A stretch of DNA of 64,000 bases from a virus (Duplodnaviria; Heunggongvirae; Uroviricota; Caudoviricetes): the IMG/VR virus record IMGVR_UViG_2563366840_000011, positions 12,067-76,066 of that record; one strand, written 5' to 3'. The notes beneath the pieces were generated by a model. The model made no database searches. It was not told the DNA's origin and saw nothing but the letters and a program-made list of their open reading frames with translations. Both the position numbers and the translations under genes were made by a program. Positions 7,176-38,707 of the stretch are shown here, piece after piece; position 1 is the first letter of the stretch, and each line of letters opens with the position of its first letter.

Positions 7176-7216
7176 GGACTCCTCTACAGAGAGAAAATGG
7201 CCCCGAAGGGCCATGA

Positions 7217-9959: not shown

Positions 9960-13640
<3,681 letters not shown>

Positions 13641-13666
<26 letters not shown>

Positions 13667-14186
13667 TCAGCAACCCCGGTATCAGTTCATCCAGCGCGGC
13701 TGCTTTGTTCATGGCTTTGATGATATCCCGTTTCAGGAAATCAACATGTCGGTTTTCCAGTTCCGGAAAACGCCGCTGCACCGACAGGGGGATCCCGTCG
13801 AGAATACTGGCAATTTCACCTGCGATCCGCGACAGCACGAAAGTACAGAATGCGGTTTCCACCACTTCAGCGGAGTCTCTGGCATTTTTCAGCTCCTGTG
13901 CGTCGGCCTGCGCACGCGTAAGTCGATGGCGTTCGTACTCAATAGTCCCTGGCTGGAGATCTGTCTCGCTGGCCTGCCGCAGTTCTTCAACTTCCCGGCG
14001 CAGCTTTTCGTTCTCAATTTCAGCATCCCTTTCGGCATACCATCTTATAACGGCGGCAGAGTCATAAAGCACCTCATTACCCTTGCCACCGCCTCGCAGA
14101 ACGGGCATTCCCTGTTCCTGCCAGTTCTGAATGGTACGGATACTCGCACCGAAAATGTCAGCCAGCTGCTTTTTGTTGACTTCCAT
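13641..14186 (-). CDS. Nu1: Terminase small subunit Nu1
   Basis: 181-aa ORF MEVNKKQLADIFGASIRTIQNWQEQGMPVLRGGGKGNEVLYDSAAVIRWYAERD... lambda Nu1-like, full length. Confidence 0.95.
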
Positions 14187-14199
14187 TGTTCATTCCACG

Positions 14200-14400
14200 G
14201 CCAAAAACAGAGAAAGGAAACGACAGAGGCCCAAAAGCTCGTTTTCAGCACCTGTCGTTTCCTTTCTTTTCAGGGGGTATTTTAAATAAAAACATTAAGT
14301 TACGACGAAGAAGAACGGAAATGCCTTAAACCGGAAAATTTTCATAAATAGCGAAAACCCGCGAGGTCGCCGCCCCGTAACCTGTCGGATCGCCGGAAAG
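14200..14400. other. cos site (cosB/cosN region); 12-nt cohesive-end sequence at about 14364-14375
   Basis: Plus strand reads ...gcgaaaacccgcgaggtcgccgccccgtaacctgtcggatc..., containing the reverse complement of the lambda cohesive end GGGCGGCGACCT; immediately upstream of Nu1. Confidence 0.85.
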
Positions 14401-14574
14401 GACCCGCAAAATGATAATAATTATCATCTGCATGTCACAACGTGCATCTACGCCATCAAACCACGTCAAATAATCAATTATGACGCAGATATCGTATTAA
14501 TTGATCTGCATCAACTTAACGTAAAAACAACTTCAGACAATACAAATCAGCGACACTGAATACGGGACAACCTC

Positions 14575-14808
14575 ATGTCAACGAAGAACAGAACCCGCAG
14601 AACAACAACCCGCAACATCCGCTTTCCTAACCAAATGATTGAACAAATTAACATCGCTCTTGAGCAAAAAGGGTCCGGGAATTTCTCAGCCTGGGTCATT
14701 GAAGCCTGCCGCCGGAGACTGTGCTCAGAAAAAAGAGTTTCTTCTGAAGCAAACAAAGAAAAGAGTGACATTACTGAATTGCTCAGAAAACAGGTCAGAC
14801 CAGATTGA
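14575..14808 (+). CDS. ynfO: YnfO/YlcI-like small prophage protein
   Basis: 77-aa ORF MSTKNRTRRTTTRNIRFPNQMIEQINIALEQKGSGNFSAWVIEACRRRL...; size and position next to cos match the Qin-type gene as recalled. Confidence 0.6.
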   Translation: MSTKNRTRRTTTRNIRFPNQMIEQINIALEQKGSGNFSAWVIEACRRRLCSEKRVSSEANKEKSDITELLRKQVRPD

Positions 14809-14865
14809 AGCAATTTAGATAATCGTGCAGACTACGCCCCCTCATATCACATGGAAGGTTTATCT

Positions 14866-15276
14866 ATGGATCAGGTAGTCATTTTTAAACAAATATTTGA
14901 TAAAGTTCGAAACGATTTAAACTATCAATGGTTTTATTCTGAGCTAAAACGTCACAATGTCTCACATTACATTTACTATTTAGCCACAGAGAATGTTCAT
15001 ATTGTATTAAAAAATGATAATACAGTGTTATTAAAGGGCCTAAAAAACATTGTGTCTGTCAAATTTTCAAAGGATAGGCATCTTATAGAAACGACCTCTA
15101 ATAAGCTGAAATCCAGAGAGATCACATTTCAGGAATACAGAAGAAACCTTGCTAAAGCAGGAGTTTTTCGGTGGGTTACAAATATCCACGAACAAAAAAG
15201 ATATTACTATACCTTTGATAATTCATTACTATTTACTGAAAGCATCCAGAAAACTACACAGATCTTACCACGCTAA
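14866..15276 (+). CDS. ydfO: YdfO/YbcV-like prophage protein
   Basis: ATG at 14866 giving [39 protein letters not shown]... (136 aa); AT-rich, opposite strand to the phage late genes. Confidence 0.65.
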
Positions 15277-15427
15277 ACCATAACGTCCGGCTTCTCTCAC
15301 TCCTGAGCCGGACTGCATTGGTTTAATAAAAACCATCAACAATTGTGATTTAGATATTCGGAACCATTCAAATATAACAAAACCCCGTAAAAACGAGGTT
15401 TATGGATAAATTTTATTATTGAATACA

Positions 15428-15601
15428 TCAGATTAAATTAATCTTGACATCATAGCTTTCAAGACCCGTCATTTTTTCCCGTGCGGTAAACTGAATACTG
15501 GTAACTTCTTTCCCGGTCTTTTTCTTAAGTTCAATAATTTTTTTTGTTATATATTCAGAAATATCTGCTTCTGCTTTTGTTTTTAAGTTTTCAATATTCA
15601 T
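15428..15601 (-). CDS. gnsB: GnsA/GnsB-family small protein
   Basis: Minus-strand ORF below the 60-aa track cutoff: MNIENLKTKAEADISEYITKKIIELKKKTGKEVTSIQFTAREKMTGLESYDVKINLI; Gns-family-like; alternative start one codon upstream at 15604. Confidence 0.6.
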   Translation of the reverse strand: MNIENLKTKAEADISEYITKKIIELKKKTGKEVTSIQFTAREKMTGLESYDVKINLI

Positions 15602-15772
15602 CATTTCCTCTTTTAGTCTGTTATGACTTTCCAGTTACACAGTAAGTCGATTATATGGTGCAAACGTGTAAAAGATAAGATGAAACATCGCAATAATCAA
15701 CATACGATAGTCTAAATTTTACACAAACAGACAAAGAAAATTTTCCTGAATTATCAATACAATAGCATCAAA

Positions 15773-16003
15773 TCAACTCAAGAGCCTTATTGCTGCTTCC
15801 AGAATTTCTTCTGAAGTAACATGTCGATCCGCGGCTACATAAATGACTTTATGATCTCCGGTCAGAGATGGAAACCCTGCGGCCATTACAGTAAGGTGTG
15901 TTTTTTCGCCATTTGGATATTCACGCATGATGGTGTTAACTCCAGTCATCGCTGGCACTACCACTGCAGGTTCAGAGTTAAAAAAAACTATGATTTTTTT
16001 CAT
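15773..16003 (-). CDS. Hypothetical small protein (start uncertain)
   Basis: ORF MKKIIVFFNSEPAVVVPAMTGVNTIMREYPNGEKTHLTVMAAGF...; ORF track extends to 16045, but a terminator hairpin at 16051-16069 favours the internal start. Confidence 0.4.
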   Translation of the reverse strand: MKKIIVFFNSEPAVVVPAMTGVNTIMREYPNGEKTHLTVMAAGFPSLTGDHKVIYVAADRHVTSEEILEAAIRLLS

Positions 16004-16039
16004 GATGTTACCGTAGTATGTGAGTATCCATCGAATAGA

Positions 16040-16069
16040 TACCAAGCAAAAAAGCTCCCGAAGGAGCCT
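16040..16069 (-). terminator. Rho-independent terminator downstream of cspI
   Basis: Hairpin gctcc-cgaa-ggagc at 16053-16066, followed on the minus strand by TTTTTTGC. Confidence 0.6.
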
Positions 16070-16274
16070 TCATTTTCACTTTTTTAAATCCAACGACAGA
16101 CGGCTGGCATTTAAGTATTGTGAAATATTATCAAATGTAATCATCATTGATTTACAAAAGATACATTTTGCCCCGAAAGGATTCATGTCAGAAACATCAA
16201 AAGATGATGTTCTATACTGGGAACCATGACAACACGGGCATCTAAAGTGAATATGGTTTGTAATATTGTCTACC

Positions 16275-16487
16275 TCAAAGCGCCACTACATGAACAGCGG
16301 CAGGACCTTTAGGTCCGTTCTCAATACCAAATTCAACTTCCTGATTCTCAGTTAATGTTTTGAAATCGTTGCTCTGAATTGCTGAGAAATGGACAAACAC
16401 ATCTTTGCTGCCATCTTTCGGCGTGATGAAACCAAAACCTTTTTCAGGGTTAAACCATTTCACTAAACCAGTCATTTTGTTAGACAT
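16275..16487 (-). CDS. cspI: Cold shock protein CspI-like
   Basis: 70-aa [73 protein letters not shown]; CspA-family fold, sequence as recalled for CspI; long AT-rich 5' region upstream. Confidence 0.9.
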
Positions 16488-16850
16488 AATTATTACCTTT
16501 TGAAGAAATTAGCCCTTGGGCAGAATGGTCCGAAAAAAAATATCAGAGAGAAAAACCAACAAGGAAATCTCAAGAGGTACAAATAATAAAATTATAACAA
16601 TGACTGCTTCAGATAAATTTGTAACAAACCAGAACACCATTAACGCATGATTAACCACCCATAGCAAGGATTACTTTTGTAAAGAAAAACACAGCAATGA
16701 AAGAATAGCTTTATTTATTAATAATAACGTGTCATTCTGATTAAGACCTTTTATCTTACCCTTAAGATTTCAGGAATTTTGGCTCATGGAAGAGTCCTTT
16801 TTATTTAAATTTTACATTCCGCGATGTAAATGTTCCGATTTAATATTACC

Positions 16851-17874
<1,024 letters not shown>

Positions 17875-17878
<4 letters not shown>

Positions 17879-18186
17879 ATATATTTATGATGAGGACGCT
17901 CGTGCTTATTGGCAGGATTTTCAATCTTAAAGGAGTACTGATGCTGCAGATAAGACTCAACTTTTTCTGACAATTTTTCTGCTACTTCCAGGAAGACTTG
18001 CCGGACGCTCCTTCTGGCTGCTGCCTCATAAAACTCCAGCGCAGCTCCTTCAACACGGTCCATGGCGACATCCAGGTCAAAAATTTCACCGTCAAAGCGT
18101 TCTTTGTCCTGTAAGGCTACAGTTACCGTAACTTTATTCTCAAAATTACGGACTCCTTTCACAACCAGTTCATAGTCTTGAGTCAT
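17875..18186 (-). CDS. ydfR: YdfR-like protein of unknown function inside the lysis cassette
   Basis: 103-aa ORF MTQDYELVVKGVRNFENKVTVTVALQDKERFDGEIFDL... between holin and endolysin. Confidence 0.6.
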
Positions 18187-18190
18187 TGGA

Positions 18191-18406
18191 TTACTCTCCT
18201 CTCGCAGCCTTACGCCTGTCTTCTTTAATCTTGAAATAAAGATTTGTCAGATACGTCAGCAGGCCAAAAACCAGGCTACCCAGCACACCGATTGCAGCCC
18301 ACTGTGACGGAGTTACTTTATCGAGTAACTGCAATGCCCAGAAACCAGCATTACCCGCCGATGTGCCATAGGCAACACCTGTTGTTAACTTATCCATTGA
18401 TTTCAT
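18191..18406 (-). CDS. essQ: Class II pinholin (phage 21 S-like) with dual-start motif
   Basis: ATG at 18406 gives [71 protein letters not shown] (71 aa), two TMDs, Met1/Met4 dual start; ORF track extends to 18481. Confidence 0.85.
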
Positions 18407-18625
18407 ATCCTCACCCCGATGTACACGGATGGTGCAATATGTTTGAAAAGATCGGAGTCTACGGGGTAGTTTTGACAGCACACGTTGTTCTCAACGGCGC
18501 TAAAAAAACATACACATTAAAAATGTGGGTAATTATTTTGAAAGAAAGTCATATATAAAATAATAATACGAGAAATGTTTTCATATTTAGTGTACTGTAT
18601 ACGGCCATTTATACAGGAAAAGCCT

Positions 18626-18796
18626 ATGTCAGAACGTAAAAACTCAAAATCACGCCGTAATTATCTCGTTAAATGTTCCTGCCCAAACTGCACCCAAGAG
18701 TCAGAACACAGTTTTTCAAGAGTACAAAAAGGTGCCCTTTTGATCTGCCCTCATTGCAACAAAGTATTCCAGACAAATCTTAAAGCTGTAGCCTGA
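18626..18796 (+). CDS. Hypothetical small zinc-ribbon protein (CxxC...CxxC)
   Basis: ATG at 18626 preceded by AGGAAAAG; MSERKNSKSRRNYLVKCSCPNCTQESEHSFSRVQKGALLICPHCNKVFQTNLKAVA; opposite strand to the late operon. Confidence 0.4.
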   Translation: MSERKNSKSRRNYLVKCSCPNCTQESEHSFSRVQKGALLICPHCNKVFQTNLKAVA

Positions 18797-18850
18797 TTGA
18801 TTTTATTAGTAACAAGTATTTTTTATATTTTAATAATATATTTAAAGCAG

Positions 18851-18880
18851 ATAATAAAAAACCCGCCTGAGCGGGTTTGA
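18851..18880 (-). terminator. Rho-independent terminator downstream of cspB
   Basis: Hairpin aacccgc-ctga-gcgggtt at about 18859-18878, followed on the minus strand by TTTTTTATT. Confidence 0.65.
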
Positions 18881-19159
18881 GATTGTGGTGCTTTTTGTGG
18901 GAGTCATCCACTTACGCACTTTGTTTTGCCATGCCAGCAGTTAGCTTCTGCTGTAAAACTATTCATGCAGCAAACCTGCACTTCACCACAATGGTTAGCA
19001 TACTTTTCCTGATTAAGATTTTGCCAAATATGCTAGCCATTGTTTCATGTATTGGACCTCCTTACTTTTTATTAAAGAGATCCAATATTCACTACTCTGT
19101 CCGTATCTCTACTCAGGCATCAGCCTTCTTCGTTATCGTATACAGACGAGCGATGAATT

Positions 19160-19375
19160 TTAATCAGTAATGATGACATTTGCTGCTGCAGGACCTTTAG
19201 CACCACTCTCTATAGAGAAGGTAACCTTTTGACCTTCAAATAAGGTTCGATAATTATCATTCTGAATCGCAGAAAAATGCACAAACACATCTTTACTACC
19301 ATCAACAGGAGAAATAAAGCCGAAACCTTTATCAGCGTTAAACCATTTTACTAAACCAGTCATTTTATTTGACAT
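19160..19375 (-). CDS. cspB: Cold shock protein CspB-like
   Basis: 71-aa [74 protein letters not shown]. Confidence 0.9.
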
Positions 19376-19675
19376 TCTACATTCCTTAACTTGAGCCTTT
19401 CGGCATAAATGGTTTGCATAACAGAAACGACTTCGTACTTAATTGGAGAGACTCAAAGAAGGAATAAGTGAATAACACCTGAAATGAGAACTGCTTTAGT
19501 AAACTACTTCGTATATCGTCTGTTCTTCAAACCGACGCAATCATTAACGCATAGTTGAACATATGAAGCAATGTTTATTTTAGACATCCAGCCATCTTCA
19601 ACCCCATCAAAAAACTATAGCTTTCTTCAGGAACGTGTGTATAGTGCGCCAAGTTATCAGTATTAAGGAATTTTT

Positions 19676-19888
19676 TTGTCCCGTAAAATGACAGGAATTG
19701 TCAAAACCTTTGACGGCAAAAGCGGCAAGGGTCTTATCACCCCATCCGATGGTCGTATCGATGTCCAGCTTCATGTTTCAGCGCTCAATCTCCGCGATGC
19801 AGAAGAAATTACCACCGGATTACGCGTGGAATTTTGCCGGATAAATGGTCTGCGTGGCCCTTCAGCTGCCAATGTTTACCTTTCATGA
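19676..19888 (+). CDS. cspF: Cold shock protein homolog CspF-like
   Basis: 70-aa [73 protein letters not shown]; divergent from cspB. Confidence 0.85.
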
Positions 19889-20164
19889 GCTATATTAAAG
19901 CTTTAATTTCAGGCCCCATCGGATCACACATGGAGAGTTTTTATGAATAACCCCGTCTGTCTTGATGACTGGTTGATTGGCTTTAAAAGCTTATGCTGTA
20001 CTTTGGCCGTAATAGCTCTGCTAATAATATAATAAGCAGACTCATTGTGTTTAGGGACATTGTACTGGAAGAAAACATTTTAAACATCAGGCAAATAACC
20101 AAGTCACCAGCTAAATAATAAGTTAACAGACATGAGTCCCGGGATGAGATTCAACATTACCATT

Positions 20165-20206
20165 GCCCCATTTAAAGCACAAAACCCGCTCATCAGCGGG
20201 TTTTCT
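20165..20206 (-). terminator. Candidate tR'-like terminator downstream of the late promoter (possibly bidirectional)
   Basis: Hairpin aacccgct-catc-agcgggtt at 20183-20206, followed on the minus strand by TTTTGTGCTTT; about 60 nt downstream of the candidate PR'. Confidence 0.5.
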
Positions 20207-20249
20207 ACTTTTTCTTAACGTCGGGTATACAAAGCCCATCGTTGAAAAA

Positions 20250-20278
20250 ATTTTATCCATATTTTTTGAAAAATGCAA
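20250..20278 (-). promoter_or_regulatory. Candidate PR'-like late promoter just downstream of Q
   Basis: Minus-strand TTGCAT, 17-bp spacer, TAAAAT, beginning about 30 nt after the Q stop codon. Confidence 0.5.
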
Positions 20279-20309
20279 ACATCATGTCGCCATCTTCAGC
20301 AAAAATCAT

Positions 20310-21062
20310 TTATCTCGTCACCTTCCTCAATTGCGCTTCCGCGTATGCTTCTTCCTGCCAGCACTTTGTTACCAGTTTACCAATGACGTCCGCATACCCC
20401 TTATACCACTGATAATCGGTCAGGTCTGGTACCAGCTTCTGGACATGACGTCGTGCCAGCGTGGTCGGTAAACGACTAAACCGGTTTCCATTACAACGCC
20501 CACAAATCTTATATACCGGTACGCCATGAAACCGGGTTCTTTTTTCATCCAGAACAATCCCTTTACCCTTACACCCTCTGCACGCTGTGCTGGCTTCGCC
20601 CTTACCATGGCAATGCTGACATAGTTCCTTCACCCATTCTTCCTTGATTACAGATTCCCCGCGTCTGTAGTGTTTCACCACTTCGCGCAATACATTATAA
20701 AATCCCGTACCTGAACAATGCTCACAGCGAGCCTTACTTGCCGCAGACCTGGAGTAATCAGCAAAGGCAAAACTCACGAGGTAAGGAATAATCTGTAACC
20801 GGATTTCTTCACTCAATTTGTTCAATGTCGGGTTATCCAGTGCCATCGCGTAATTTAGCAGGCCTTCAATCGCAAACTGAGGGTCCTGAACACCAACTTT
20901 TGCCAGAAATAAGGCCAACCCAAGTGGTGCTTTCGACTGCACCATCCCCTGCGCTGCCATTACATCCGTAATTGTTAAACAACCGGTGCCTGTCGCTGGA
21001 GCGTCATCGCTCAATTTTGGAGATTTTGGGGAGTAATATTTTGGTAAGGCTTCAAGGTTCAT
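20310..21062 (-). CDS. quuQ: Late antiterminator Q (Qin-type)
   Basis: From ATG at 21062: MNLEALPKYYSPKSPKLSDDAPATGTGCLTITDVMAAQGMV... (250 aa) with Cys-rich zinc-binding region; upstream of the lysis cassette. Confidence 0.85.
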   Translation of the reverse strand: MNLEALPKYYSPKSPKLSDDAPATGTGCLTITDVMAAQGMVQSKAPLGLALFLAKVGVQDPQFAIEGLLNYAMALDNPTLNKLSEEIRLQIIPYLVSFAFADYSRSAASKARCEHCSGTGFYNVLREVVKHYRRGESVIKEEWVKELCQHCHGKGEASTACRGCKGKGIVLDEKRTRFHGVPVYKICGRCNGNRFSRLPTTLARRHVQKLVPDLTDYQWYKGYADVIGKLVTKCWQEEAYAEAQLRKVTR

Positions 21063-21075
21063 GCTCGTTCTCCAC

Positions 21076-22125
21076 TTACGCCAGTACGCCAATTGCCAGC
21101 GCGCGATCGATAAAACGAAATATCAGCTCCAGTTGGGAGCCATACTTATCTTCAAATGCCACTGTATCCGTATGCAGCTCGTTGTGATGCTTTCTGCACA
21201 AAGGCAACACAAAGAGATCATGTGCTTTTGTTCCCATTCCGCCCTGCCCGTGACCAATCAGATGATGCGGATCGTCGGCTGGCATACCGCAGCAAGCACA
21301 CGGCTGTGTCTTAACCCAACGTGTGTATTTCTCCTTAACCCAGCGGCGACGTTTAGGCAGCTTCATGAAAGATTCCGGAGACTCTGGATCAACGGTGATG
21401 CTTACCACCGTCTTTTCCTGTGGTGATTTTTGTTGCTGGTGGGCGTAAGGCAACGGTGCAAGATTTTTTGTGCGTTGTTTCAATATGCTGGTGGCGGTCT
21501 GCTCTCCCGGTACGATGTCGCTTTCGCGGTACACCGAGCAGATTTTTTCCGCTGGTAATCCCAGCGAACGACGCGATACAGCCTCAGGTAGTGCATCCAC
21601 CACCTGATTGCAGACCGCCCACCAGGATAATTCAGCCAAAGATAATTCCCGCTCCTGCGTACCGCTTATTGCGTGACGGATGACGTCAATCACCCATGCT
21701 GTCAGATTTTGTTGAGCAAGCAGCTCCAGTGATTCCGATGTCTGGTCACGCAGTTGGTTGTCGCAGTGCCAGCACAACACCATTGCGCCGGTACCATAAC
21801 GGTGAATGACTGTTTCAGTGTGATGGTAATCGCCATTAGGCCACTGGCAGGATGTAACATGACGTAATAGCCAGTCGGACAATGCGCCAACGCCGCCAGC
21901 AGCACGAATCACCCGTTCGTTACTAAAAAACGGCAGCAATGTTTTGTCTTCCGCCAGCGGCTGGCGAACGGCAGGAACGACTCCGGATGGCAGATTACGC
22001 ATGCTTTTTGGTTCCGGTTCCACCAGCACTCGAGGATTATGAAATATCTGTATGGATTCACGGCCCGGCTTAAGGACCACCAGCCCAAGCTCAGGCACCA
22101 GAACAGGTCTAAGTAATACCCGCAC
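21076..22125 (-). CDS. ydfU: YdfU-like protein with C-terminal HNH-like Cys/His motif
   Basis: GTG at 22125 preceded by GGAGG; C-terminus ...QPCACCGMPADDPHHLIGHGQGGMGTKAHDLFVLPLCRKHHNELH; 349 aa from this start, ORF track extends to 22164. Confidence 0.7.
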   Translation of the reverse strand: MRVLLRPVLVPELGLVVLKPGRESIQIFHNPRVLVEPEPKSMRNLPSGVVPAVRQPLAEDKTLLPFFSNERVIRAAGGVGALSDWLLRHVTSCQWPNGDYHHTETVIHRYGTGAMVLCWHCDNQLRDQTSESLELLAQQNLTAWVIDVIRHAISGTQERELSLAELSWWAVCNQVVDALPEAVSRRSLGLPAEKICSVYRESDIVPGEQTATSILKQRTKNLAPLPYAHQQQKSPQEKTVVSITVDPESPESFMKLPKRRRWVKEKYTRWVKTQPCACCGMPADDPHHLIGHGQGGMGTKAHDLFVLPLCRKHHNELHTDTVAFEDKYGSQLELIFRFIDRALAIGVLA

Positions 22126-22126
22126 G

Positions 22127-22405
22127 TTACCTCCAGATCCGTTGCTGGAAAGTGCGGGACGCACGTGGTGGGCGTTCGGAATAAGGCAGCCTGACAGAGA
22201 TTATCCAGTGCCGATAGTCGAGACTGAGAGCTTTCTTAACCTCGAACCCGCGCCTGCGGTAAGAATGAATCAGCCATTCGGCCTGTTCTGCAGTGCATGG
22301 AGGGTGCTGGAACCATTCAGACTTGAATGCGTGAGAATACCGCCCGTGCGTGCAGGCAAGAACGGGCGAATTATCAGAATTGTAATATTTTGCGTTGCGT
22401 GCCAT
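22127..22405 (-). CDS. Hypothetical protein
   Basis: 92-aa ORF MARNAKYYNSDNSPVLACTHGRYSHAFKSEWFQHPPCTAEQAEWLIHSYRRRGFEV...; stop abuts the ydfU start. Confidence 0.45.
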   Translation of the reverse strand: MARNAKYYNSDNSPVLACTHGRYSHAFKSEWFQHPPCTAEQAEWLIHSYRRRGFEVKKALSLDYRHWIISVRLPYSERPPRASRTFQQRIWR

Positions 22406-22471
22406 CGGTTTTCTCCGGTGGCACGGTGTTACTCAGCGGGAGTTCAGCCCCGCGCAAGATTGTAGATGAGT

Positions 22472-22723
22472 TTATTCTTCTGAAAAAGCAGAAAAGCCAG
22501 CTTTTATTCCGATCTCTTTCAATGCCTGTAATGAAGTGACAAACTCACCTTCGCGCAAGATAAATCCGTCCGTGACCCGAGCATCCACAAAATTAATTAA
22601 CGCAGCCCCATTCTTTCGCAAACACATAATGCGGTAATGACTAACAAGATTTCCATTTTCAACGCACACAGCATAGAGGCCATCTTCACAAAAAATTTTA
22701 CGCAGTTCTTCGATGTTCATCAT
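22472..22723 (-). CDS. rem: Rem-like small protein (assignment by size and position only)
   Basis: 83-aa ORF MMNIEELRKIFCEDGLYAVCVENGNLVSHYRIMCLRKNGAALINFVDARV... between ydfU and hokD. Confidence 0.45.
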   Translation of the reverse strand: MMNIEELRKIFCEDGLYAVCVENGNLVSHYRIMCLRKNGAALINFVDARVTDGFILREGEFVTSLQALKEIGIKAGFSAFSEE

Positions 22724-22835
22724 CAGAATCCTTCCGGATAATTAGCTCTCCCCTTTAAGGGACCATCCCTCTTATCCCTGCGCGCTACTTAAGTATTTTT
22801 GATTCTATTCCGGCACCGTCCAGAACTTCAAACGC

Positions 22836-22871
22836 GTTGAAAATAAAAACAAAAACCCGCCGAAGCGGGTT
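22836..22871 (-). terminator. Rho-independent terminator of the relB-relE-hokD operon
   Basis: Hairpin aacccgc-cgaa-gcgggtt at 22854-22871, followed on the minus strand by TTTTTGTTTTTATTTT. Confidence 0.7.
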
Positions 22872-22939
22872 AAGTGCGGGTGCGTTGAGGATGCCTGCCA
22901 CATCAGAGGTGGCGAGGGATTTCTCCCCCGCCGGGTCTC

Positions 22940-23095
22940 TTACTCCTCAGGTTCGTAAGCTGTGAAGACAGCGACCTCCGTCTGGCCGGTTCGGATTCGT
23001 ACCTCGCAGAGGTCTTTCCTCGTTACCAGTGCCGTCACTATGACGGTTAAACAGATGACGATCAGGGCGATTAACATCGCCTTTTGCTGCTTCAT
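22940..23095 (-). CDS. hokD: Hok-family membrane toxin HokD (RelF)
   Basis: Minus-strand ORF missed by the 60-aa cutoff: MKQQKAMLIALIVICLTVIVTALVTRKDLCEVRIRTGQTEVAVFTAYEPEE (51 aa). Confidence 0.85.
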   Translation of the reverse strand: MKQQKAMLIALIVICLTVIVTALVTRKDLCEVRIRTGQTEVAVFTAYEPEE

Positions 23096-23166
23096 AGCCT
23101 GCTTCTCCTGTCAACGCAAAGCAGAAGTGTCACCTTCGGTGCGAAACAGAGATGTCATGCTTTGGT

Positions 23167-23454
23167 TCAGAGAATGCGTTTGACCGCCTCGCTATATACT
23201 TCCGAGCGTTCTCTTTTCCCAACAGAAATCACGAAAACGACAACTTTCTCGTCTATAACCTGGTATACAAGGCGATAGCCTGAAGACCGGAGCTTAATCT
23301 TGTAACAATCAGGCATACCACGGAGCTTGTTTGCTTCAATCCGGGGTGACTCAAGTACTTCAACCAGCTTCTTTTTCAACTGTTCACGTACCGTCGAGCC
23401 CAGCTTTCGCCATTCCTTTAGTGCCCGCTCGTCAAAATCCAGAAAATACGCCAT
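23167..23454 (-). CDS. relE: RelE mRNA interferase toxin
   Basis: 95-aa ORF MAYFLDFDERALKEWRKLGSTVREQLKKKLVEVLESPRIEANKLRGMPDCYKIKLRSSGYRLVYQVIDEKVVVFVISVGKRE... Confidence 0.93.
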   Translation of the reverse strand: MAYFLDFDERALKEWRKLGSTVREQLKKKLVEVLESPRIEANKLRGMPDCYKIKLRSSGYRLVYQVIDEKVVVFVISVGKRERSEVYSEAVKRIL

Positions 23455-23693
23455 CAGAGTTCATCCAGCGTCACACGTACTGGCTTAGGATTACGAAGCC
23501 GTTCTTTCACTATCTCCACAAGTTCAGCATCTTCATCACTCAGGAGTGTCTGTTTGAACGGCAAGCGTTCATTGTCAGCGATATACTCGAGCATGAGACG
23601 AAGCGCTTCAGAAGGAGTTACACCCATTTTTTCAAGCGCGGCGTAAGAACGCGCTTTAAGTTCATCGTCAATACGCAGGTTAATGCTACCCAT
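23454..23693 (-). CDS. relB: RelB antitoxin
   Basis: 79-aa ORF MGSINLRIDDELKARSYAALEKMGVTPSEALRLMLEYIADNERLPFKQTLLSDEDAELVEIVKERLRNPKPVRVTLDEL; one-base overlap with relE. Confidence 0.93.
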   Translation of the reverse strand: MGSINLRIDDELKARSYAALEKMGVTPSEALRLMLEYIADNERLPFKQTLLSDEDAELVEIVKERLRNPKPVRVTLDEL

Positions 23694-23699
23694 GTCTTA

Positions 23700-23735
23700 C
23701 ACCTCTTGTAATTACAAATGTCATTACAAGTATCG
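23700..23735 (-). promoter_or_regulatory. relBE promoter/operator (relO-like TTGTAAT repeats)
   Basis: Minus strand reads CTTGTAATGACATTTGTAATTACAAGAGGTGTAAGAC immediately before the relB ATG. Confidence 0.75.
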
Positions 23736-24023
23736 CACTACAACATGCTTAGGGCAAGTCACGAAGGAAGTCAGAAAGTAGTCGTAAGAACGGTGATCAC
23801 TGTCCGCTTTGTGCCAGGAGCAGCCATTGCTAAGTCCATCCTGTATTGTGCAGGTCAGCTCGTTTTTAAAGAGTCCGGCCATCATCTTACTGGTACAGAC
23901 ACCATATACTTTGTGACGGTCAGGCTACATATGCACAACTCAACTTATTCATCTATTTTTTGCTTTAGCATGTCAGTGTTGCTTTCTCGTCGGCGGGTGA
24001 GCGGTGACCTGACCTGTCGATAA
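23718..24023 (+). CDS. ydfV: YdfV-like hypothetical ORF (possibly non-coding)
   Basis: 101-aa ORF between relB and flxA; no recognisable motif; assignment by size and position only. Confidence 0.3.
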   Translation: MSLQVSHYNMLRASHEGSQKVVVRTVITVRFVPGAAIAKSILYCAGQLVFKESGHHLTGTDTIYFVTVRLHMHNSTYSSIFCFSMSVLLSRRRVSGDLTCR

Positions 24024-24225
24024 AGGAACGTAACACGTTTTATGCAACACCCGCATGCGGCAGAAAATTATTGCCGAACGTTTACCCCTGTCAACAAGCT
24101 TTACTTTCTGAGGCGCGCCAGCCCGCGAGGAAAACAATCTGAACATCAAACAATTAATGACACAAGAAATACGATTAAAGATTTTTTTGTGCATGCCGAT
24201 AGTGCTTTTTTAAAAGGAGAAATCT

Positions 24226-24558
24226 ATGTCTGTCACAATTCAGGGAAATACCTCAACCGTTATTTCAAACAACTCCGCCCCGGAAGGAACATCAGAAATA
24301 GCCAAAATCACAAGACAAATTCAGGTGCTGACTGAAAAGCTTGGGAAAATCTCATCGGAAGAGGGGATGACGACACAGCAGAAAAAAGAAATGGCTGCAT
24401 TGGTACAGAAGCAAATTGAAAGCCTCTGGGCTCAACTGGAGCAGTTGTTAAGGCAGCAGGCAGAGAAAAAGAATGAAGACGCGACAGTTCAGCCTGATAA
24501 AAAAGAAGAGAAAAAAGACGATACAAATACCGCTGGCACCATTGATATTTACGTCTAA
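24226..24558 (+). CDS. flxA: FlxA-like protein
   Basis: 110-aa ORF MSVTIQGNTSTVISNNSAPEGTSEIAKITRQIQVLTEKLGKISSEEGMTTQQKKEMAALVQKQIESLWAQLEQLLRQQAEKKNE... Confidence 0.85.
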   Translation: MSVTIQGNTSTVISNNSAPEGTSEIAKITRQIQVLTEKLGKISSEEGMTTQQKKEMAALVQKQIESLWAQLEQLLRQQAEKKNEDATVQPDKKEEKKDDTNTAGTIDIYV

Positions 24559-24572
24559 GTGACAGCCGTATT

Positions 24573-24599
24573 GTGGCCCTCATCGGGCCACTTTTCGCC
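24573..24599 (+). terminator. Rho-independent terminator downstream of flxA
   Basis: Hairpin gtggccc-tcatc-gggccac at 24573-24591, followed by TTTTCGCC. Confidence 0.65.
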
Positions 24600-24994
24600 A
24601 TCAGCCTTTTCTTTAAAGACATATTATCTTTGTATCATTTCTGATAGTTAACATTACAAGATATAAGTAATGGACGCACTCCCAATTAGTCTATTTAAAT
24701 CGCCACGAGTTTAACTGACAACCCATGATCAATTATGAATTGCAACTATTTCTGTAGTCACTTTTGTGGGGACAGTCCACAAAACTGCCAACTTCCGCTT
24801 CTTGCTCTTAGCGGACATTAGCATAGGCTATTTACCATAACGCCTCATTACGCGCACCGCCCAGACTGACTCAGCGCGTTTCTGGCATATCCCCGGTAAA
24901 ACAAGTAACAAACCACCCGAAAATGAACACCAGAAACGCGACTTAAGAATCTACCCTATGAATGGATATGCACTCAACCGAATCGATCTTGGTT

Positions 24995-26308
24995 TCAATC
25001 TTTTTTATCGGGATCAGGCTTCTTTTTAGGTAACTTCGGGGGCTTAACTTGCTGATGACTTTGCGTTCGGCGCGTAAGCCAGGGATGGTCAGCTTTAGGT
25101 TTAACATAGTATTTTGAGCGTAAATCAATACGGGCATTATCCACTCGTTCATGGACACTCTTTTCATCATCCAGTGGTATAGGCTCCGGGCCATCAACAT
25201 ACTTTTCCCAGCCCAGCGCTTTCCCGTCATACAGAACGTTAATTTCACCGTCAAAGTTCTCGCATACAGTAACAACCGAATGCCTAAGTCGATATCCCCG
25301 GCCCTCACTGCGTACCTGAAACGCACTGCTTTTGTACTGGAAAGTGAGATTTTTAGACAGAACGCGCTTCGCCTGTAGGCTGAAGATATAACCCAGTTCC
25401 TCTTCAGAATGGTGCACATCAAGATGAGCATTATCAGTAGTACGAGGCGACGTAGCGAACCGGTTGTTATAGGCTTCAATAAAGGTCGGCAACCATGCAT
25501 TTGCTGTTTCAATATCACTGATATTCTGAAGCCGCATTTCTTTGACCAGCCTGTCCTGTAGTGTCTGATTGGCGCGCTCTACCCGCCCTTTTGCCTGCGG
25601 GCTGTTGGCATGGATTGGCTCGATGCCCAGTGTCTTTATCGCACGAGTGAACTGGGTCAGCTCACCTTCCCGCTCTGGGTTATTTACCCTGAATATACTG
25701 TGTCTATCAGAGTAGAGAGCGAGCGGTACGCCATGATCATTAAGGTAACCCCGGAGGGTTTCCATGTAAGCCCGGGTTGTTTCAGCAGGCACAAAACGCA
25801 ACGCCATCAACGCACTGGTGGCATCATCAATGAAAACGATCAGTGTACATCTGGGGCCTCGATTTTCAAACCAGTCATGAGGTGAGCCATCAATCTGGAT
25901 CAGTTCACCGTAAGATGGTCGTCGCATGCGGCGTTGATATATACGGGCAATTTTACGACGGCGTTCACGCCATAACCCCTCTTCTATCATCCACTTTCTG
26001 AGAGTTTCAACGGATAAAGATAAACCGTGTATCTCGCGCAATTTTTCGCACGCAAACGTAGGTCCAAAATCAGCGTAACGGCCTTTGAGGAGTGAAATTA
26101 CTGTTGCTCTGAATTCAGTAGAAAAGGAATTATTAGGACGCTTTCCACGTCGGTGGGAAACCAGACCAGAAGGCCCTTCATTTCTATACCGTTGCACCAG
26201 ACGTTTAACCTGCCGAATAGAAATGCCAATGCGTGCCGCAGCTTGTTCCTGAATAATCTGAAGTCGATGGAGTTCCTTATGACTCATCGTAACAGTCTCT
26301 TTGATCAT
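24995..26308 (-). CDS. DDE (integrase-core type) transposase of an unclassified IS element
   Basis: 437-aa ORF with N-terminal HTH-like region, then IQIDGSPHDWF..., LYSDRHSIF..., ANSPQAKGRVERANQTLQ (DDE/rve-like); element ends not resolved. Confidence 0.65.
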   Translation of the reverse strand: MIKETVTMSHKELHRLQIIQEQAAARIGISIRQVKRLVQRYRNEGPSGLVSHRRGKRPNNSFSTEFRATVISLLKGRYADFGPTFACEKLREIHGLSLSVETLRKWMIEEGLWRERRRKIARIYQRRMRRPSYGELIQIDGSPHDWFENRGPRCTLIVFIDDATSALMALRFVPAETTRAYMETLRGYLNDHGVPLALYSDRHSIFRVNNPEREGELTQFTRAIKTLGIEPIHANSPQAKGRVERANQTLQDRLVKEMRLQNISDIETANAWLPTFIEAYNNRFATSPRTTDNAHLDVHHSEEELGYIFSLQAKRVLSKNLTFQYKSSAFQVRSEGRGYRLRHSVVTVCENFDGEINVLYDGKALGWEKYVDGPEPIPLDDEKSVHERVDNARIDLRSKYYVKPKADHPWLTRRTQSHQQVKPPKLPKKKPDPDKKD

Positions 26309-26949
26309 GAAAAATCCCCCAGAGAATTGTCTGGGGACATTTTAGAATGGTTCAAAGGGGACATTACAGCTTGGTGTTAACAATAGCCTGCTTCTCCGTG
26401 CCTTTCGGCACGTAAGAGGCTAACCTACATGTGTCTAGCATGAAATTGGCCTCAGATTAATGTTAAGCGTCTTGCAGGACGCGTAATGTTAACTGGGGCT
26501 TTTCTCTATCTGCCGTTGGTGTCCATGCCCGAGGCAGATAGCCTCAAGCACCCGCAGTCATTCTACTTAACTAAGATTTCCCCGCAAACCGTTTTTGTCC
26601 AGCACAGTAAATATCCAACTAAACCAATGGAGTTCGCTGTATTTACCGCCAGTATTCAATGCACATGACCGCCATGAACACCCCTAAAAAAAGGGCATTT
26701 ATATATCCAAATATTAATATCAAAACATCAACTTTTTCCATATACCTTGCTGTGAAGATGATGGGCATACATGATGCGAACAACCAGAACGCAACAAACA
26801 AAAACTGCAATGCGTTTTTCATTATTCCTCCTACAATCAATGTGCAATTACATTTAAACACACCTCAATTTGGCCGGACATATAAATATCTAAACCAGAA
26901 AAAATCACTTACATAGCGTTACAAACTCTTTAGTCTAAAGGTTCATCGT

Positions 26950-27750
26950 AAAACATTCCCCATACTTATCAGTCCGTTCCGCGCCAGGTAGCTCATTGCC
27001 TTATCTGGCAACCTGTAATCAGGTTTCCGCTTTTTCAGTTGGCTGGTCGTTTAACCGACATAGTTAATCCATTAATCTAGTTGCCGGATGTTGGTGGATT
27101 TTCGCGTTTTAGTTGTTCATAAAAGTGCACAGCTTTAACCAGTTCTTCTGATGTAACTGGGACTGGTGAGGCAGTGAATAAGGCCTGAATTTGATAGTTC
27201 GGCCTGTCGTTACAATCCTCTTTTTTCGGTACATATTTCCAGTCACCAGACCACTACTTCCCCTGAAAGTCCGTAACGCCTTTTTTCACGTAGCGATATC
27301 GCCATGCCACTGGTTTTGCTTGCCCCGCCGTTTCATGCCCTTCCTGATAATTAATCTCGCTCATTCATCGCCCCACTCATCACAATATGCTTCGACCGGA
27401 GTTTTTCCCGCTTCATAGTCATCACGCTAGGATTCGACATCAGCAGCACTTCCACCGCGTAACTCACCATAGTCCATTAATAGTTCATCCCGCTCTTCAA
27501 AACTGATGTTATATTTAGCTGAACAAAAATCAGCCACTTTGTTCTTCCTCATCGTCTTTTATTTCGTGGTATGAGTAATTGCAGTAGTTAAAGAAAATTT
27601 CTTATGCTCCGTCATGAATTTCCTCAGGTGTTGCGTCATCGTCCACTTCGAATACATCCTCAAAATCTCCACCAGCTATTCCCGTTTCAATAATAATTTT
27701 GAACTTTCGCATTTCACTACCGCCCTTTCGGGCGGCCTCCTGATGTTCTG
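26950..27750 (-). pseudogene. Chain of frameshifted/interrupted small ORFs (decayed phage accessory genes)
   Basis: Minus-strand segments such as MRKFKIIIETGIAGGDFEDVFEVDDDATPEEIHDGA, ...KYNISFEERDELLMDYGELRGGSAADVES, ...AKPVAWRYRYVKKGVTDFQGK | WSGDWKYVPKKEDCNDRPNYQIQ..., separated by stops and frame changes. Confidence 0.4.
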
Positions 27751-28127
27751 AGGGTGCAGAAATCCATCCGGTTAAGGATTAAATTTTATTTACAGAACTG
27801 AATTTAATTATTCAGATATACGTATCTGTAGCCTTACGAATCTACTCACTGGATGCCTCTTTCATAAAAATAATCCAGTGGGTTTTATCGTTTTTTCCCC
27901 TGTTCGTTGACAGATAACAGGTTTTCTGTCTGTCAGTGCCAGAATCTGGCTTACCGGTATTTGCGTTTCATTCCATTAAAAAATCAGAACGCCGTGCGGC
28001 CTCAACACCCGAAAGGCTTCTTTAAATCTCTGTCGCGAATCATCACGCCAGGCATCTTTATTCAGCCGTCCATATTTCTTTCCCATCCAGGCGTTATCAC
28101 CAACACTCTCAAGGTAATGACTCCAAC

Positions 28128-28631
28128 TTATTGATAGTGTTTTATGTTCAGATAATGCCCGATGACTTTGTCATGCAGCTCCACCGATTTTGAGAACGAC
28201 AGCGACTTCCGTCCCAGCCGTGCCAGGTGCTGCCTCAGATTCAGGTTATGCCGCTCAATTCGCTGCGTATATCGCTTGCTGATTACGTGCAGCCTTCCCT
28301 TCAGGCGGGATTCATACAGCGGCCAGCCATCCGTCATCCATATCACCACGTCAAAGGGTGACAGCAGGCTCATAAGACGCCCCAGCGTCGCCATAGTGCG
28401 TTCACCGAATATGTGCGCAACAACCGTCTTCCGGAGCCTGTCATACGCGTAAAACAGCCAGCGCTGGCGCGATTTAGCCCCGACATAGCCCCACTGTTCG
28501 TCCATTTCCGCGCAGACGATGACGTCACTGCCCGGCTGTATGCGCGAGGTTACCGACTGCGGCCTGAGTTTTTTAAATGGCGGAAAATCGTGTTGAGGCC
28601 AACGCCCATAATGCGGGCGGTTGCCCGGCAT
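28128..28631 (-). CDS. insB: IS1 transposase InsB
   Basis: 167-aa [67 protein letters not shown]... Confidence 0.95.
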
Positions 28632-28825
28632 CCAACGCCATTCATGGCCATATCAATGATTTTCTGGTGCGTACCGGGTTGAGAAGCGGTGTAAGTGAAC
28701 TGCAGTTGCCATGTTTTACGGCAGTGAAAGCAGAGATAGCGCTGATGTCCGGCGGTGCTTTTGCCGTTACGCACCACCCCGTCAGTAGCTGAACAGGAGG
28801 GACAGCTGATAGAAACAGAAGCCAC
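28550..28825 (-). CDS. insA: IS1 protein InsA
   Basis: 91-aa [54 protein letters not shown]...; A-run frameshift site at about 28559-28566. Confidence 0.95.
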
Positions 28826-28880
28826 TGGAGCACCTCAAAAACACCATCATACACTAAATCAGTAAGTTGGCAGCATCACC

Positions 28881-29221
28881 CCTTTTTCAGTGAAAATCTC
28901 GCCAAGCGGTGTCTGGCTGTTATTAATCGCCCAGTCAGCCCCGCTCTCTTTCGCTTTTTCCAGTCGTTCATCAATGCGATCGGCAACAATCACATTTTTA
29001 ACGTTATAGACGCCTTTTAATACCTGAACGATCGTCAGGCCGATTGGACCGGCACCATAAACCAGAACGGTATCATTTTCAGTCGGTTGACCATGTCCGG
29101 TTACGTTAGCCGCAATGGTAAAAGGTTCGATCATTACCGCATATTGATCGGCCACTGCTTCAGGAATTTTCCACGCATTTTTTGCCGGAACCACGGCATA
29201 TTCACTGAAACCACCGTCAGC
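28881..29221 (-). pseudogene. rspB: Internal fragment of rspB-like zinc-dependent alcohol dehydrogenase gene, cut by the Mu-like prophage upstream and IS1 downstream
   Basis: Minus-strand frame DGGFSEYAVVPAKNAWKIPEAVADQYAVMIEPFTIAANVTGHGQPTENDTVLVYGAGPIGL...EIFTEKG runs into the IS1 end; continues the reading frame of the fragment at 63661-64000. Confidence 0.8.
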
Positions 29222-29400
29222 TGTGGGGAGGTGATCGTTTCTGCACTGTGAAGAATCTAGGGAAAAATGCCGGGAAGGCCGATGAATAGAGAGATTGCGT
29301 GGATTCTGTGATTTTGCACTGCAAAAAATAAAATGAGAAAAAATAGCTATTTTTGCGTTTAATTCTGCACTCGAATGAAAGGCTTTAGATCCTTTTTAAA
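29222..29400 (+). repeat. Mu-like left end with repeated candidate transposase-binding motifs
   Basis: GTTTCTGCACTGTGAAG, TTTTGCACTGCAAAAAA and TTCTGCACTCGAATGAAAG within the first ~170 bp; the same TTTTGCACTG-type motif recurs inverted at the right end. Confidence 0.6.
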
Positions 29401-29484: not shown

Positions 29485-30054
29485 TTAACCGGCCTTCTTG
29501 TCGTGACTTGTTAGGCCCGCTTCGGCTGTCTGTTGATCAGCCTCAGATGACCCTTTTTTCAGTTGCTCATTCAGCCTAAGCAAACGCTCTTTGTCTTCTA
29601 AGGGGAGATTCATCAGACTCATATCAACATCCTTAACGCTAGCCACAAGACCTACCATGCTGCGAGCGCCTTCCTTAAAGCAGTACTCTAATATTTTTTT
29701 CTGATCATCTGGTTCTAGACTGTCGAAAATCATGTTCCACGCGCATTTAGCAGGGTCTGCATATCCTCTGTGCGCTTCATCAACAGCGATGATGCGATTC
29801 AAATTAGAATCAGCCTCATGCCCAAATGCCAGCCAGTCCAACGTGACATGCTCTTTCGCTGCGATGGCTTGCATGGCAATGAAGGATGGTTCTGTTCCCC
29901 TGCTAAGGTAGTTGTTCAATGTCGAGAATGATAACCCCCAATCTTTTGCCGCAGCCCTTACACTGCGAGTGCCTACGAGAGCTTTTAGTCTCTTGATAAA
30001 GTTTTCTTTTCTCTCTTCATCAAAAGCAAATTCGTTTGCTTTACGGTATCCCAT
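29485..30054 (-). CDS. Prophage repressor (Mu c analog, HTH)
   Basis: 189-aa ORF MGYRKANEFAFDEERKENFIKRLKALVGTRSVRAAAKDWGLSFSTLNNYLSRGTEPS... with HTH-like segment; divergent from ner-A-B. Confidence 0.7.
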   Translation of the reverse strand: MGYRKANEFAFDEERKENFIKRLKALVGTRSVRAAAKDWGLSFSTLNNYLSRGTEPSFIAMQAIAAKEHVTLDWLAFGHEADSNLNRIIAVDEAHRGYADPAKCAWNMIFDSLEPDDQKKILEYCFKEGARSMVGLVASVKDVDMSLMNLPLEDKERLLRLNEQLKKGSSEADQQTAEAGLTSHDKKAG

Positions 30055-30237: not shown

Positions 30238-30465
30238 ATGGAAAGAAATGAAGTACAGCGTGACTGGCATCGCATTGATATTGTCGCCGAGCTGCACAAG
30301 CGTGGCGTCACTATGCGCGGCCTTTCCGCCAGCGCGGGACTAAAACCCGACACGCTGAAAAATGCGCTGGCACGCTCTTATCCAAAAGGAGAGCGCATTA
30401 TTGCAAATGCTCTCAATTTAGAACCCGCCAGTATCTGGCCAAGCCGTTACAACAAGGACCTGTGA
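30238..30465 (+). CDS. Ner-like DNA-binding protein
   Basis: 75-aa ORF MERNEVQRDWHRIDIVAELHKRGVTMRGLSASAGLKPDTLKNALARSYPKGERIIANALNLEPASIWPSRY; Mu Ner/Nlp-like pattern. Confidence 0.85.
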   Translation: MERNEVQRDWHRIDIVAELHKRGVTMRGLSASAGLKPDTLKNALARSYPKGERIIANALNLEPASIWPSRYNKDL

Positions 30466-32569: not shown

Positions 32570-33463
32570 ATGTCAGCTAAAAATGAACTTGTCGAACTGA
32601 TGAAAGCAAAAGGTCTTAACCAGACGCAGGTCGCCCGCGCTATTGGTAAGAGCTCTGCCGTAATCAGCCAGTACCTGAATAATAAATACGACGGCGATAT
32701 TGCATCGCTGGAAAACGATATTCGTAGCTTTATCGATCGTCAGCATGAAAAAGAGCGCTCGGCACGTATCAGCGTCAAATTTGTTGATACCCCAACAACG
32801 CGCAAAGCCGTTGATGTTATACGCATGGCGCACGTCGAAGGTGATATCAACGTGCTTTACGGCGAAGCCGGTCTGGGCAAGACGATGATTTGCAAAGCCT
32901 ACGTCTCTAAATACCGGGATGCGTTGCTGATTGAGGCCGACCCTGGCTACACCGCACGCGTAATCCTGGAAGAACTCTGCAACCTGCTGGGGCTCAGTAC
33001 CCGCGGCAATATGCATGAACTTAGCGAAGCCTGCATCAACAAGCTGCGCGACTCCGGGCGCGTGCTGATTATTGATGAAGCTGAGAACCTCCCTCTGCGT
33101 GCGCTGGAATCTATCCGCCGCATTCATGACAAAACGGGGATCGGCATCGTCCTGGTTGGTATGCCTCGCCTGATTCTGAACCTCAAGGGCAAACGCGGTG
33201 AGCTCGTACAGCTCTATAGCCGTGTCGGTTTCGCCCTCAACCTCGGGCATAGCCTGCCGGGTGCTGATATTGACGTCATCGCCAGCAGCGTTCTCCCGGA
33301 TGGCCTGAATGAAGACCTGAGCAAAGCGCTGTTCAACGCATCAAAAGGTAATGCCCGCCGACTGTTCAAGCTACTGCGCGGTGCAGTTCGTACCAGTGCA
33401 ATGAATGATGTTCCGGTCAGCGGTCATATCGTCAATCAGATAGCCGAAATGCTGATCCATTAA
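32570..33463 (+). CDS. Transposition ATPase (MuB-like, AAA+)
   Basis: 297-aa ORF with N-terminal HTH-like region and Walker A GEAGLGKT, Walker B LIIDEAE. Confidence 0.88.
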   Translation: MSAKNELVELMKAKGLNQTQVARAIGKSSAVISQYLNNKYDGDIASLENDIRSFIDRQHEKERSARISVKFVDTPTTRKAVDVIRMAHVEGDINVLYGEAGLGKTMICKAYVSKYRDALLIEADPGYTARVILEELCNLLGLSTRGNMHELSEACINKLRDSGRVLIIDEAENLPLRALESIRRIHDKTGIGIVLVGMPRLILNLKGKRGELVQLYSRVGFALNLGHSLPGADIDVIASSVLPDGLNEDLSKALFNASKGNARRLFKLLRGAVRTSAMNDVPVSGHIVNQIAEMLIH

Positions 33464-38201: not shown

Positions 38202-38707
38202 TGCGCAATACAATGAGATATATGGCATTTTTCTTGGTGGTATTTAGTACTACTGTAGTGGCAAAAACAGTACCCAATACAAAAGCAGTTGAAACTTATA
38301 AAAATCAACTTGAGGAAACTAAGAGAATATTTAATGAAACGCAGAGCACTTTAATGGGTGCAACTGCTGTTTTTGATATGTACAAGAGTCTGGGATATCT
38401 TACACCTGAAGTTGTTGCAGTGAGTCGTCATTTCCTCCTCCTTGATGAGGATGCGAAAAAATTGTATGGGGAGAATCTTCTTTTAAACCCTACACCTTTT
38501 AGCTCTTGTGCTACGTTACCAGCAGCAGCTTACTCATATTGGATGGCAAGGCTATCTTCATTAAAAACTGATAATGTTAAGGCTGTGAATGCGCAGGGTG
38601 AATCATACATAAAACAGGGTAAGGAATGTAAATTTGCAATTAACAACCCACCTCCCTCGCATATTGAAGAAAGTGATTATGTAGAGATAATTGATGTTAC
38701 TCAATAA
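38201..38707 (+). CDS. AT-rich moron: predicted secreted/periplasmic protein of unknown function
   Basis: 168-aa ORF MRNTMRYMAFFLVVFSTTVVA|KTVPNTK... with a signal-peptide-like N-terminus and 2 Cys; codon usage visibly more AT-rich than flanking genes. Confidence 0.55.
   Translation: MRNTMRYMAFFLVVFSTTVVAKTVPNTKAVETYKNQLEETKRIFNETQSTLMGATAVFDMYKSLGYLTPEVVAVSRHFLLLDEDAKKLYGENLLLNPTPFSSCATLPAAAYSYWMARLSSLKTDNVKAVNAQGESYIKQGKECKFAINNPPPSHIEESDYVEIIDVTQ

Follow-up and report, generated by a model that had tools for sequence, protein, structure and literature searches.

A single copy of the insertion sequence IS1 almost certainly marks the place at which a cryptic lambdoid prophage of the Qin type has lost its early-left (dic/int) arm, and the neighbouring gene rspB its 3' end, in a stretch of viral DNA of 64,000 nt (IMGVR_UViG_2563366840_000011, positions 12,067-76,066). 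This stretch is referred to here as the window, and the rest of the source genome lies outside it. As judged from alignment with an intact Qin locus, the deletion left one IS1 at the joint, with the remnant of a methyltransferase gene on its left and a fragment of rspB on its right.

The IS1 joint and the missing segment

An earlier note on this DNA, made from the letters alone, had described a complete IS1 at 28113-28880, and the ends of the element, its size of 768 bp and its intact insA and insB' genes were all found to agree with that description. The terminal inverted repeats (23 nt, 78% complementary) lie at 28113-28135 (right inverted repeat, IRR, facing left) and 28858-28880 (left inverted repeat, IRL, facing rspB). 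The Pfam domains Zn_ribbon_InsA (E = 1.8e-20), HTH_Tnp_IS1 (E = 1.7e-30) and DDE_Tnp_IS1 (E = 1.2e-77) were all matched, and the A6C frameshift motif is legible at ~28570 on the minus strand. IS1 is an element of 768 bp with inverted repeats of ~30 bp, and it ordinarily generates an 8-9-bp duplication of its target (PMC12428005). In the window, the 9 bp outside the element read CACTCTCAA on the left (28104-28112) and CCTTTTTCA on the right (28881-28889), and no 8- or 9-bp target-site duplication was present at the IS1, also when shifts of one base were tried. The differing 9-bp flanks reported in the earlier note therefore hold, as no matching duplication came to light on re-inspection.

The two flanks derive from different genes. 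The frame that ends on the left flank (...AFRVLRPHGVLIF followed by its stop) corresponds to the last 44 codons of a Qin class I S-adenosylmethionine (SAM)-dependent methyltransferase (WP_001310834.1, 118 amino acids), which is intact in E. coli strain cq9, the source of the intact reference locus (L001). The remnant matches L001 15416-15553 within a coding sequence at 15416-15772. The earlier note had correctly placed the IS1 between a fragment of rspB and the end of a short minus-strand frame, and that frame can now be named as the methyltransferase remnant. Positions 12558-28113 of the window are collinear with L001 1-15553 at 99.6% identity, with the Qin gene order nohA, cspI, rzpQ/rrrQ/essD, cspB, cspF, ydfT, ydfU, rem, hokD, relE, relB, ydfV, flxA shared between the two, and positions 28881-29225 match L001 24782-25125 in the same orientation. 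The comparison of syntenic loci, which the earlier note had proposed and which was extended here to cq9 and others, thus shows the two flanks of the IS1 collinear in cq9, in equal orientation and order and 9,228 bp apart (L001 15554-24781 is missing from the window), and this separation explains the missing target-site duplication. The left joint is ambiguous by one base, because the G counted here as the start of IS1 may instead be L001 base 15554. With collinear flanks and no second IS1 copy within the 64-kb window, the event reads as a deletion and not as an inversion. Of the "deletion or inversion" first proposed, only the deletion stands, and the removal of the dic/int side of the lambdoid prophage is borne out by the 9,228-bp gap.

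As compared to cq9, the window lacks the 5' two-thirds of the methyltransferase gene, a DUF977 gene, an O-like replication gene, a ydaT-family gene, dicC, dicA, ydfA, ydfB, ydfC, dicB, ydfD, an exonuclease gene, xis, int and the prophage end, and rspB is missing its last 343 nt (3') at the IS1 joint. dicF is unannotated in the compared records and presumably lies in the ydfC-dicB gap, its place in K-12. The integrase gene and the right attachment end next to rspB, deleted in the window, are present in cq9, AH21 and NT1N31, and genomes without IS1 at this position run uninterrupted into the methyltransferase gene. The comparison panel of 5,426 complete E. coli genomes contained no case of the same junction without IS1, a pattern that the earlier note had also considered. 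With the integrase and excisionase genes deleted, the Qin of the window would no longer be able to excise. It also lacks the dicA/dicC immunity region, dicB and the replication genes, and probably can no longer express DicB/DicF. The genes that it would retain are relBE, hokD, flxA, the Q/lysis genes and the cold-shock genes.

IS1 joints at this locus in other E. coli genomes

The two sides of the joint differ in how often they recur. The left junction of the window (methyltransferase/IS1, 28112/28113) was found in 0 of the 5,426 genomes, and scans of metagenome contigs and species-representative genome contigs for the exact left junction, and for the rspB junction in both IS1 orientations, gave 0 matches. 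The right junction is already in public genomes: it is identical, from the IRL into rspB, in ET490, ET670 (L002) and ET979, three frog isolates of which ET670 and ET979 come from one accession series. In these three, the IRR joins the O-like gene and 1,487 bp more are kept, so the deletion in the window is longer by 1,487 bp. Two Res13 isolates (O9:H10, from pigs, including Res13-Lact-PEB20-37-A) carry IS1 at the same rspB nucleotide in inverted orientation, with ydfJ on its other side and the prophage missing from that locus. IS1 thus abuts the identical nucleotide of rspB in five other genomes.

Further IS1 junctions fall at L001 positions 24356, 24363, 24606-24614 (a simple insertion), 24619, 24726 and 24752, inside the 3' end of rspB or shortly beyond it, and ~30 of the 5,426 genomes have an IS1 no more than a few hundred bp away from this stretch of rspB. 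Similar scars are carried by closed genomes, namely ET490, ET670, ET979, HS, MB51, A23, ETEC1720 (L011) and Res13. As in the window, their IS1 borders on the 3' part of rspB or on the sequence that directly follows it, the int arm or the whole prophage is gone, and no duplication is present; the methyltransferase junction sets the window apart from them. Simple IS1 insertions nearby serve as an internal control, as they show perfect 9-bp duplications (TAAAGGTTC in 25-07338, L003; GCGTCTGCA in AH21, L004; TTAAGCGTG in KE51, L012), unlike every IS1 at a deletion joint. Like the IS1 of the window, the insertion in AH21 interrupts the methyltransferase gene, and the two share their orientation. 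The AH21 insertion was suspected to sit at the exact left junction, but alignment puts it 42 bp off. The insertion in KE51 is in rspB. In the int region of YSP8-1, two IS1 copies lie in direct orientation.

The IS1 of the window is 98.8-99.2% identical to annotated IS1A and IS1B copies. Among ~75,000 IS1 places in the 5,426 genomes, its nearest relatives are common IS1B copies at 99.9% identity, one substitution away. The junction IS1 of ET670 is an IS1A and differs from the IS1B-like element of the window at 9 of 768 positions, and the rspB flank of the window shows 3 differences from that of ET670, whereas it is identical to those of Res13, AH21 and MB51. Descent of the window by a nested deletion from the ET490/ET670/ET979 lineage is unsupported, given these differences at 9 positions of IS1 and 3 of the rspB flank. 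Within that lineage, the IS1 at the same junction is annotated as IS1A in ET670 and as IS1B in ET979 (99.7% and 99.5% identity to the window, respectively), which hints at gene conversion between IS1 copies. From annotation only, an apparently larger IS1-associated loss is seen in strain 2017.10.01CC between ydfW and rspA.

The Qin prophage of K-12 is the same prophage, with the same order from nohA to flxA, and both it and that of the window have internal deletions. In the ydfW-ydfX-dicC region, the two differ in what was lost. The window keeps the DNA between ydfW and ydfX and has lost dicC through int. K-12 retains the dic region and lacks the DNA between ydfW and ydfX, as a query starting at 24640 is matched by K-12 records over its first 540 nt only.

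Origin of the joint and a candidate hot spot

The reading that we favour for the joint, at a probability of roughly 55%, is an IS1 adjacent deletion, that is, a deletion by intramolecular replicative transposition, with recombination between two IS1 copies as a serious rival. An IS1 resident at one endpoint would transpose intramolecularly and replicatively into the other endpoint, and the product would keep a single IS1 copy and join one IS end to the new target with no target-site duplication. The rspB site CCTTTTTCA would be the anchor or a preferred target, and either endpoint could be the anchor. The window agrees with IS1 adjacent deletions in that its joint consists of one complete IS1 without an 8-9-bp duplication, its flanks are collinear and the DNA beside one IS end has been lost. 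It differs from observed cases in that the event is known from sequence only, and this sequence also fits IS1-IS1 recombination. A missing duplication usually goes back to an adjacent deletion or to two IS copies having recombined (PMC11708052), and Turlan & Chandler 1995, a work on replicative deletions by IS1, appears in the reference list of a second paper (PMC12428005). Adjacent deletion is favoured because one junction is constant and the other end variable among the relatives, because no simple-insertion precursor was seen, and because fewer steps are needed. A precursor of two-copy recombination would need simple IS1 insertions at the endpoints, and none was found at either exact endpoint in the 5,426 genomes; at the rspB site, such a precursor would read IS1 joined to ...GATGCCTTTTTCA, including the duplication.

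Several observations weigh against an adjacent deletion. By sequence, its product is the same as that of recombination between two direct IS1 copies. The IS1 and rspB flank of the window differ from those of ET670, as given above (9/768 positions and 3 sites), Res13 has its IS1 inverted at the identical nucleotide, and the shared rspB junction may be a hot spot that was hit independently and not the mark of one anchored element. The simple insertion in AH21, in the same orientation and only 42 bp away, indicates that precursors for recombination do arise, and the view of the genome is limited to 64 kb.

RecA-dependent homologous recombination between two direct IS1 copies, one in the methyltransferase gene and one at CCTTTTTCA in rspB, is a plausible if less probable origin. 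It would excise 9.2 kb and leave a single IS1, flanked on its left as the methyltransferase copy had been and on its right as the rspB copy had been, and this predicted product (one IS1, no duplication, collinear flanks) is as seen. IS1 is an abundant element, found at 11 places in the median E. coli genome of the panel, and the simple insertions in AH21 and in rspB of KE51, together with the two direct copies in the int region of YSP8-1, are of the kind that such an exchange would start from. The rspB site has been struck in both orientations, which makes independent insertions plausible, and recombination is a frequent cause of lacking duplications (PMC11708052). It is disfavoured by the lack of a simple insertion at the exact endpoints in any of the 5,426 genomes and by the number of steps, as two insertions and a recombination exceed one insertion and one intramolecular event. 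The IS1 of the window also has no evident chimerism, the sign of IS1-IS1 recombination; it reads throughout as an IS1B-like variant, with a single private change, a pattern that is uninformative here.

It is very unlikely that the joint is an artefact in which two IS1 copies around an intact 9.2-kb dic-int segment were collapsed into one during assembly. IS1 is a multicopy repeat of 768 bp of the sort that short-read assemblers often mis-join, and the left junction is unique, without a match among the 5,426 genomes or in the contig scans. The closed genomes listed above, from ET490 to Res13, nevertheless show real deletions with the same type of scar, which makes a collapse unlikely, and the 64 kb continue unbroken across the IS1 and across a prophage of 34 kb, as they would in a finished or long-read assembly. 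Least credible of all are an IS1-mediated inversion and a simple insertion whose duplication has decayed by point mutation. Intramolecular IS1 transposition can yield inversions, but both flanks match the reference in order and orientation and the window holds no second, inverted IS1, which rules the inversion out. A decayed duplication is excluded, as the flanks are unrelated sequences from genes that lie 9.2 kb apart.

One rspB nucleotide forms the IS1 junction in three configurations, namely that of the window, that shared by ET490, ET670 and ET979, and the inverted one of Res13. The reuse of this nucleotide suggests, on modest evidence, an IS1 target hot spot at the prophage boundary. For about eight independent junctions spread over ~430 bp, the chance of one coincidence is 6-7% by a rough estimate, and the evidence is therefore only suggestive. 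The opposite orientation in Res13 must reflect an independent event, and this, together with the differing IS1 variants and single-base differences in the flanks, makes a hot spot at CCTTTTTCA a real possibility. A stronger version is more doubtful, though conceivable: the site may be a true hot spot that was hit independently in both orientations in unrelated lineages (window, ET, Res13), repeatedly removing either the whole of Qin or its dicB/int arm (along with dicF, if that gene sits between ydfC and dicB as it does in K-12), in a convergent and possibly selected domestication. If true, cell-division inhibitors and excision genes would have been shed, with toxin-antitoxin and cold-shock genes retained. 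Nothing specific on IS1 together with Qin or rspB was found in the literature. The joint itself is a case of the ordinary, recurrent IS-driven decay of a cryptic prophage and its neighbour gene, whose components and process are well known. Its main value is for annotation, and it adds one case to the pattern of IS1 near the 3' end of rspB.

Older Qin residents, rspB and the Mu-like prophage

The features of the region are collected in the table below.

Table. Features of the window around the IS1 joint and in the adjoining Mu-like prophage (coordinates are those of the window; L001 is the cq9 reference locus).
Feature	Coordinates	Strand	Evidence or remarks
flxA	24226-24558	+	Last intact Qin gene before the region; Pfam FlxA E = 2.3e-14; annotated flxA in syntenic loci
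ISNCY-family (IS1202/ISEsa1-like) transposase open reading frame, 437 amino acids	24995-26308	-	NF033594
Qin pseudogene, hypothetical protein, frameshifted, internal stop	26943-27364	-	L001 14384-14805
Qin pseudogene, DUF7167 family, internal stop	27530-27712	-	L001 14971-15153
Methyltransferase 3' remnant	27976-28112	-	44 codons plus stop; translation ESVGDNAWMGKKYGRLNKDAWRDDSRQRFKEAFRVLRPHGVLIF followed by the stop; cut by IS1
IS1, complete, IS1B-like	28113-28880	-	768 bp; IRR adjoins methyltransferase remnant, IRL adjoins rspB
insB'	28128-28631	-	Intact; IS1 Pfam domains
insA	28550-28825	-	Intact; IS1 Pfam domains
rspB internal fragment, codons 113-225	28881-29221	-	NF007489 positions 113-225 of 339, E = 1.1e-58; L001 24782-25122
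Mu-like transposable prophage, ~34.4 kb	29222-63660	+	Inserted in rspB; ends TGT...ACA; flanking duplicated CAGC
Mu-like repressor	29485-30054	-	Pfam
Ner-like gene	30238-30465		Within Mu-like prophage; Pfam
MuA-like transposase, 685 amino acids	30467-32524		Within Mu-like prophage; Mu-transpos_C, HTH_Tnp_Mu_1, rve
MuB-like AAA ATPase	32570-33463		Within Mu-like prophage; Pfam
rspB 5' part, codons 1-112	63661-64000	-	Preceded by duplicated CAGC; window end is the rspB start codon

The earlier note had made an "unclassified" transposase and the decayed open reading frames (ORFs) between it and IS1 part of the event, and neither idea held up. The transposase ORF belongs to the ISNCY family (456 bits against NCBIfam NF033594, with a cut-off of 250, over model positions 7-365 of 368) and is an old single-copy resident of Qin. 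Of the 5,426 genomes, 785 carry its region over the full length (the median is one place per genome), and each of the 15 full-length matches listed has the ORF together with ydfW, in Qin. In Qin prophages that have kept the dic/int arm it is 99.8-99.9% identical, and the region of the pseudogene at 26943-27364 shows 99.9% identity in genomes with an intact arm; the same pseudogenes are kept in intact Qin copies. Because they are conserved where the arm is intact, the ISNCY ORF and the decayed ORFs are ruled out as participants in the deletion. No inverted-repeat pair was found bracketing 24995-26308, and RefSeq labels the ORF a pseudogene. The ydfW of RefSeq is the C-terminal 49 codons of this ORF (24995-25144), and a variant in some genomes has an additional 27 in-frame bp near the N-terminus (residues ESINRHITQ). 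Three differences are private to the window as compared to all Qin copies that cover the respective site: T for C at 22479, A for G at 26267 (in the ISNCY ORF) and an extra C at 27897.

The earlier note had also called rspB truncated. This holds at the IS1, where the 3' 343 nt are gone, but not at 29221, where the break is the insertion of a Mu-like prophage, with codons 1-112 found beyond it. The 5' part matches L001 25119-25458 at 97.4% identity and is identical to the rspB of AH21, Res13 and MB51. We infer that rspB was inactivated twice, independently, at the IS1 joint and by the Mu-like insertion, which displaced the 5' part by 34.4 kb; it is better annotated as a doubly disrupted pseudogene than as a truncated gene.

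The left end of the Mu-like prophage gave Pfam matches to Mu-transpos_C, HTH_Tnp_Mu_1, rve, AAA_22 and HTH_35 (accessions at this end: PF09299, PF02316, PF00665, PF13401, PF13693, PF07022). The element resembles phage Mu in its MuA-like, MuB-like and Ner-like proteins and repressor in Mu order, its TG...CA ends and its short target duplication. It appears to differ from Mu, whose target duplication is 5 bp, in that the unambiguous duplication (window 29218-29223 and 63657-63666) is a perfect 4 bp, CAGC, and reaches 5 bp only with a mismatch (TCAGC vs ACAGC). FDAARGOS_1303 alone among the 5,426 genomes shares the Mu-like structural region, at 94.8% identity and inserted in ydbL. Its element (locus L015, around ~4330-4345 and ~38570-38590) has TG...CA ends and the duplication GATG (4 bp), which becomes AGATG should the element be shorter by one base. 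The left end had no close match in the 5,426 genomes except for an 83%-identical remnant on plasmid pMCR10_2641_2, which is followed by IS26. A megablast comparison of the prophage with a phage collection matched almost nothing, and the closest phage record to the transposase is that of Klebsiella phage ST405-OXA48phi1.1, at 68.5% amino-acid identity. By these comparisons, a Mu-like prophage of this kind is rare in E. coli. Compared to the IS1 scar beside it, the prophage is the rarer and more interesting feature and merits attention of its own. In ETEC1720, an IS5 lies in rspB ~10 bp from the insertion site of the Mu-like prophage (L011 3860-5055, corresponding to L001 ~25130-25134), and across strains rspB is broken by several different mobile elements.

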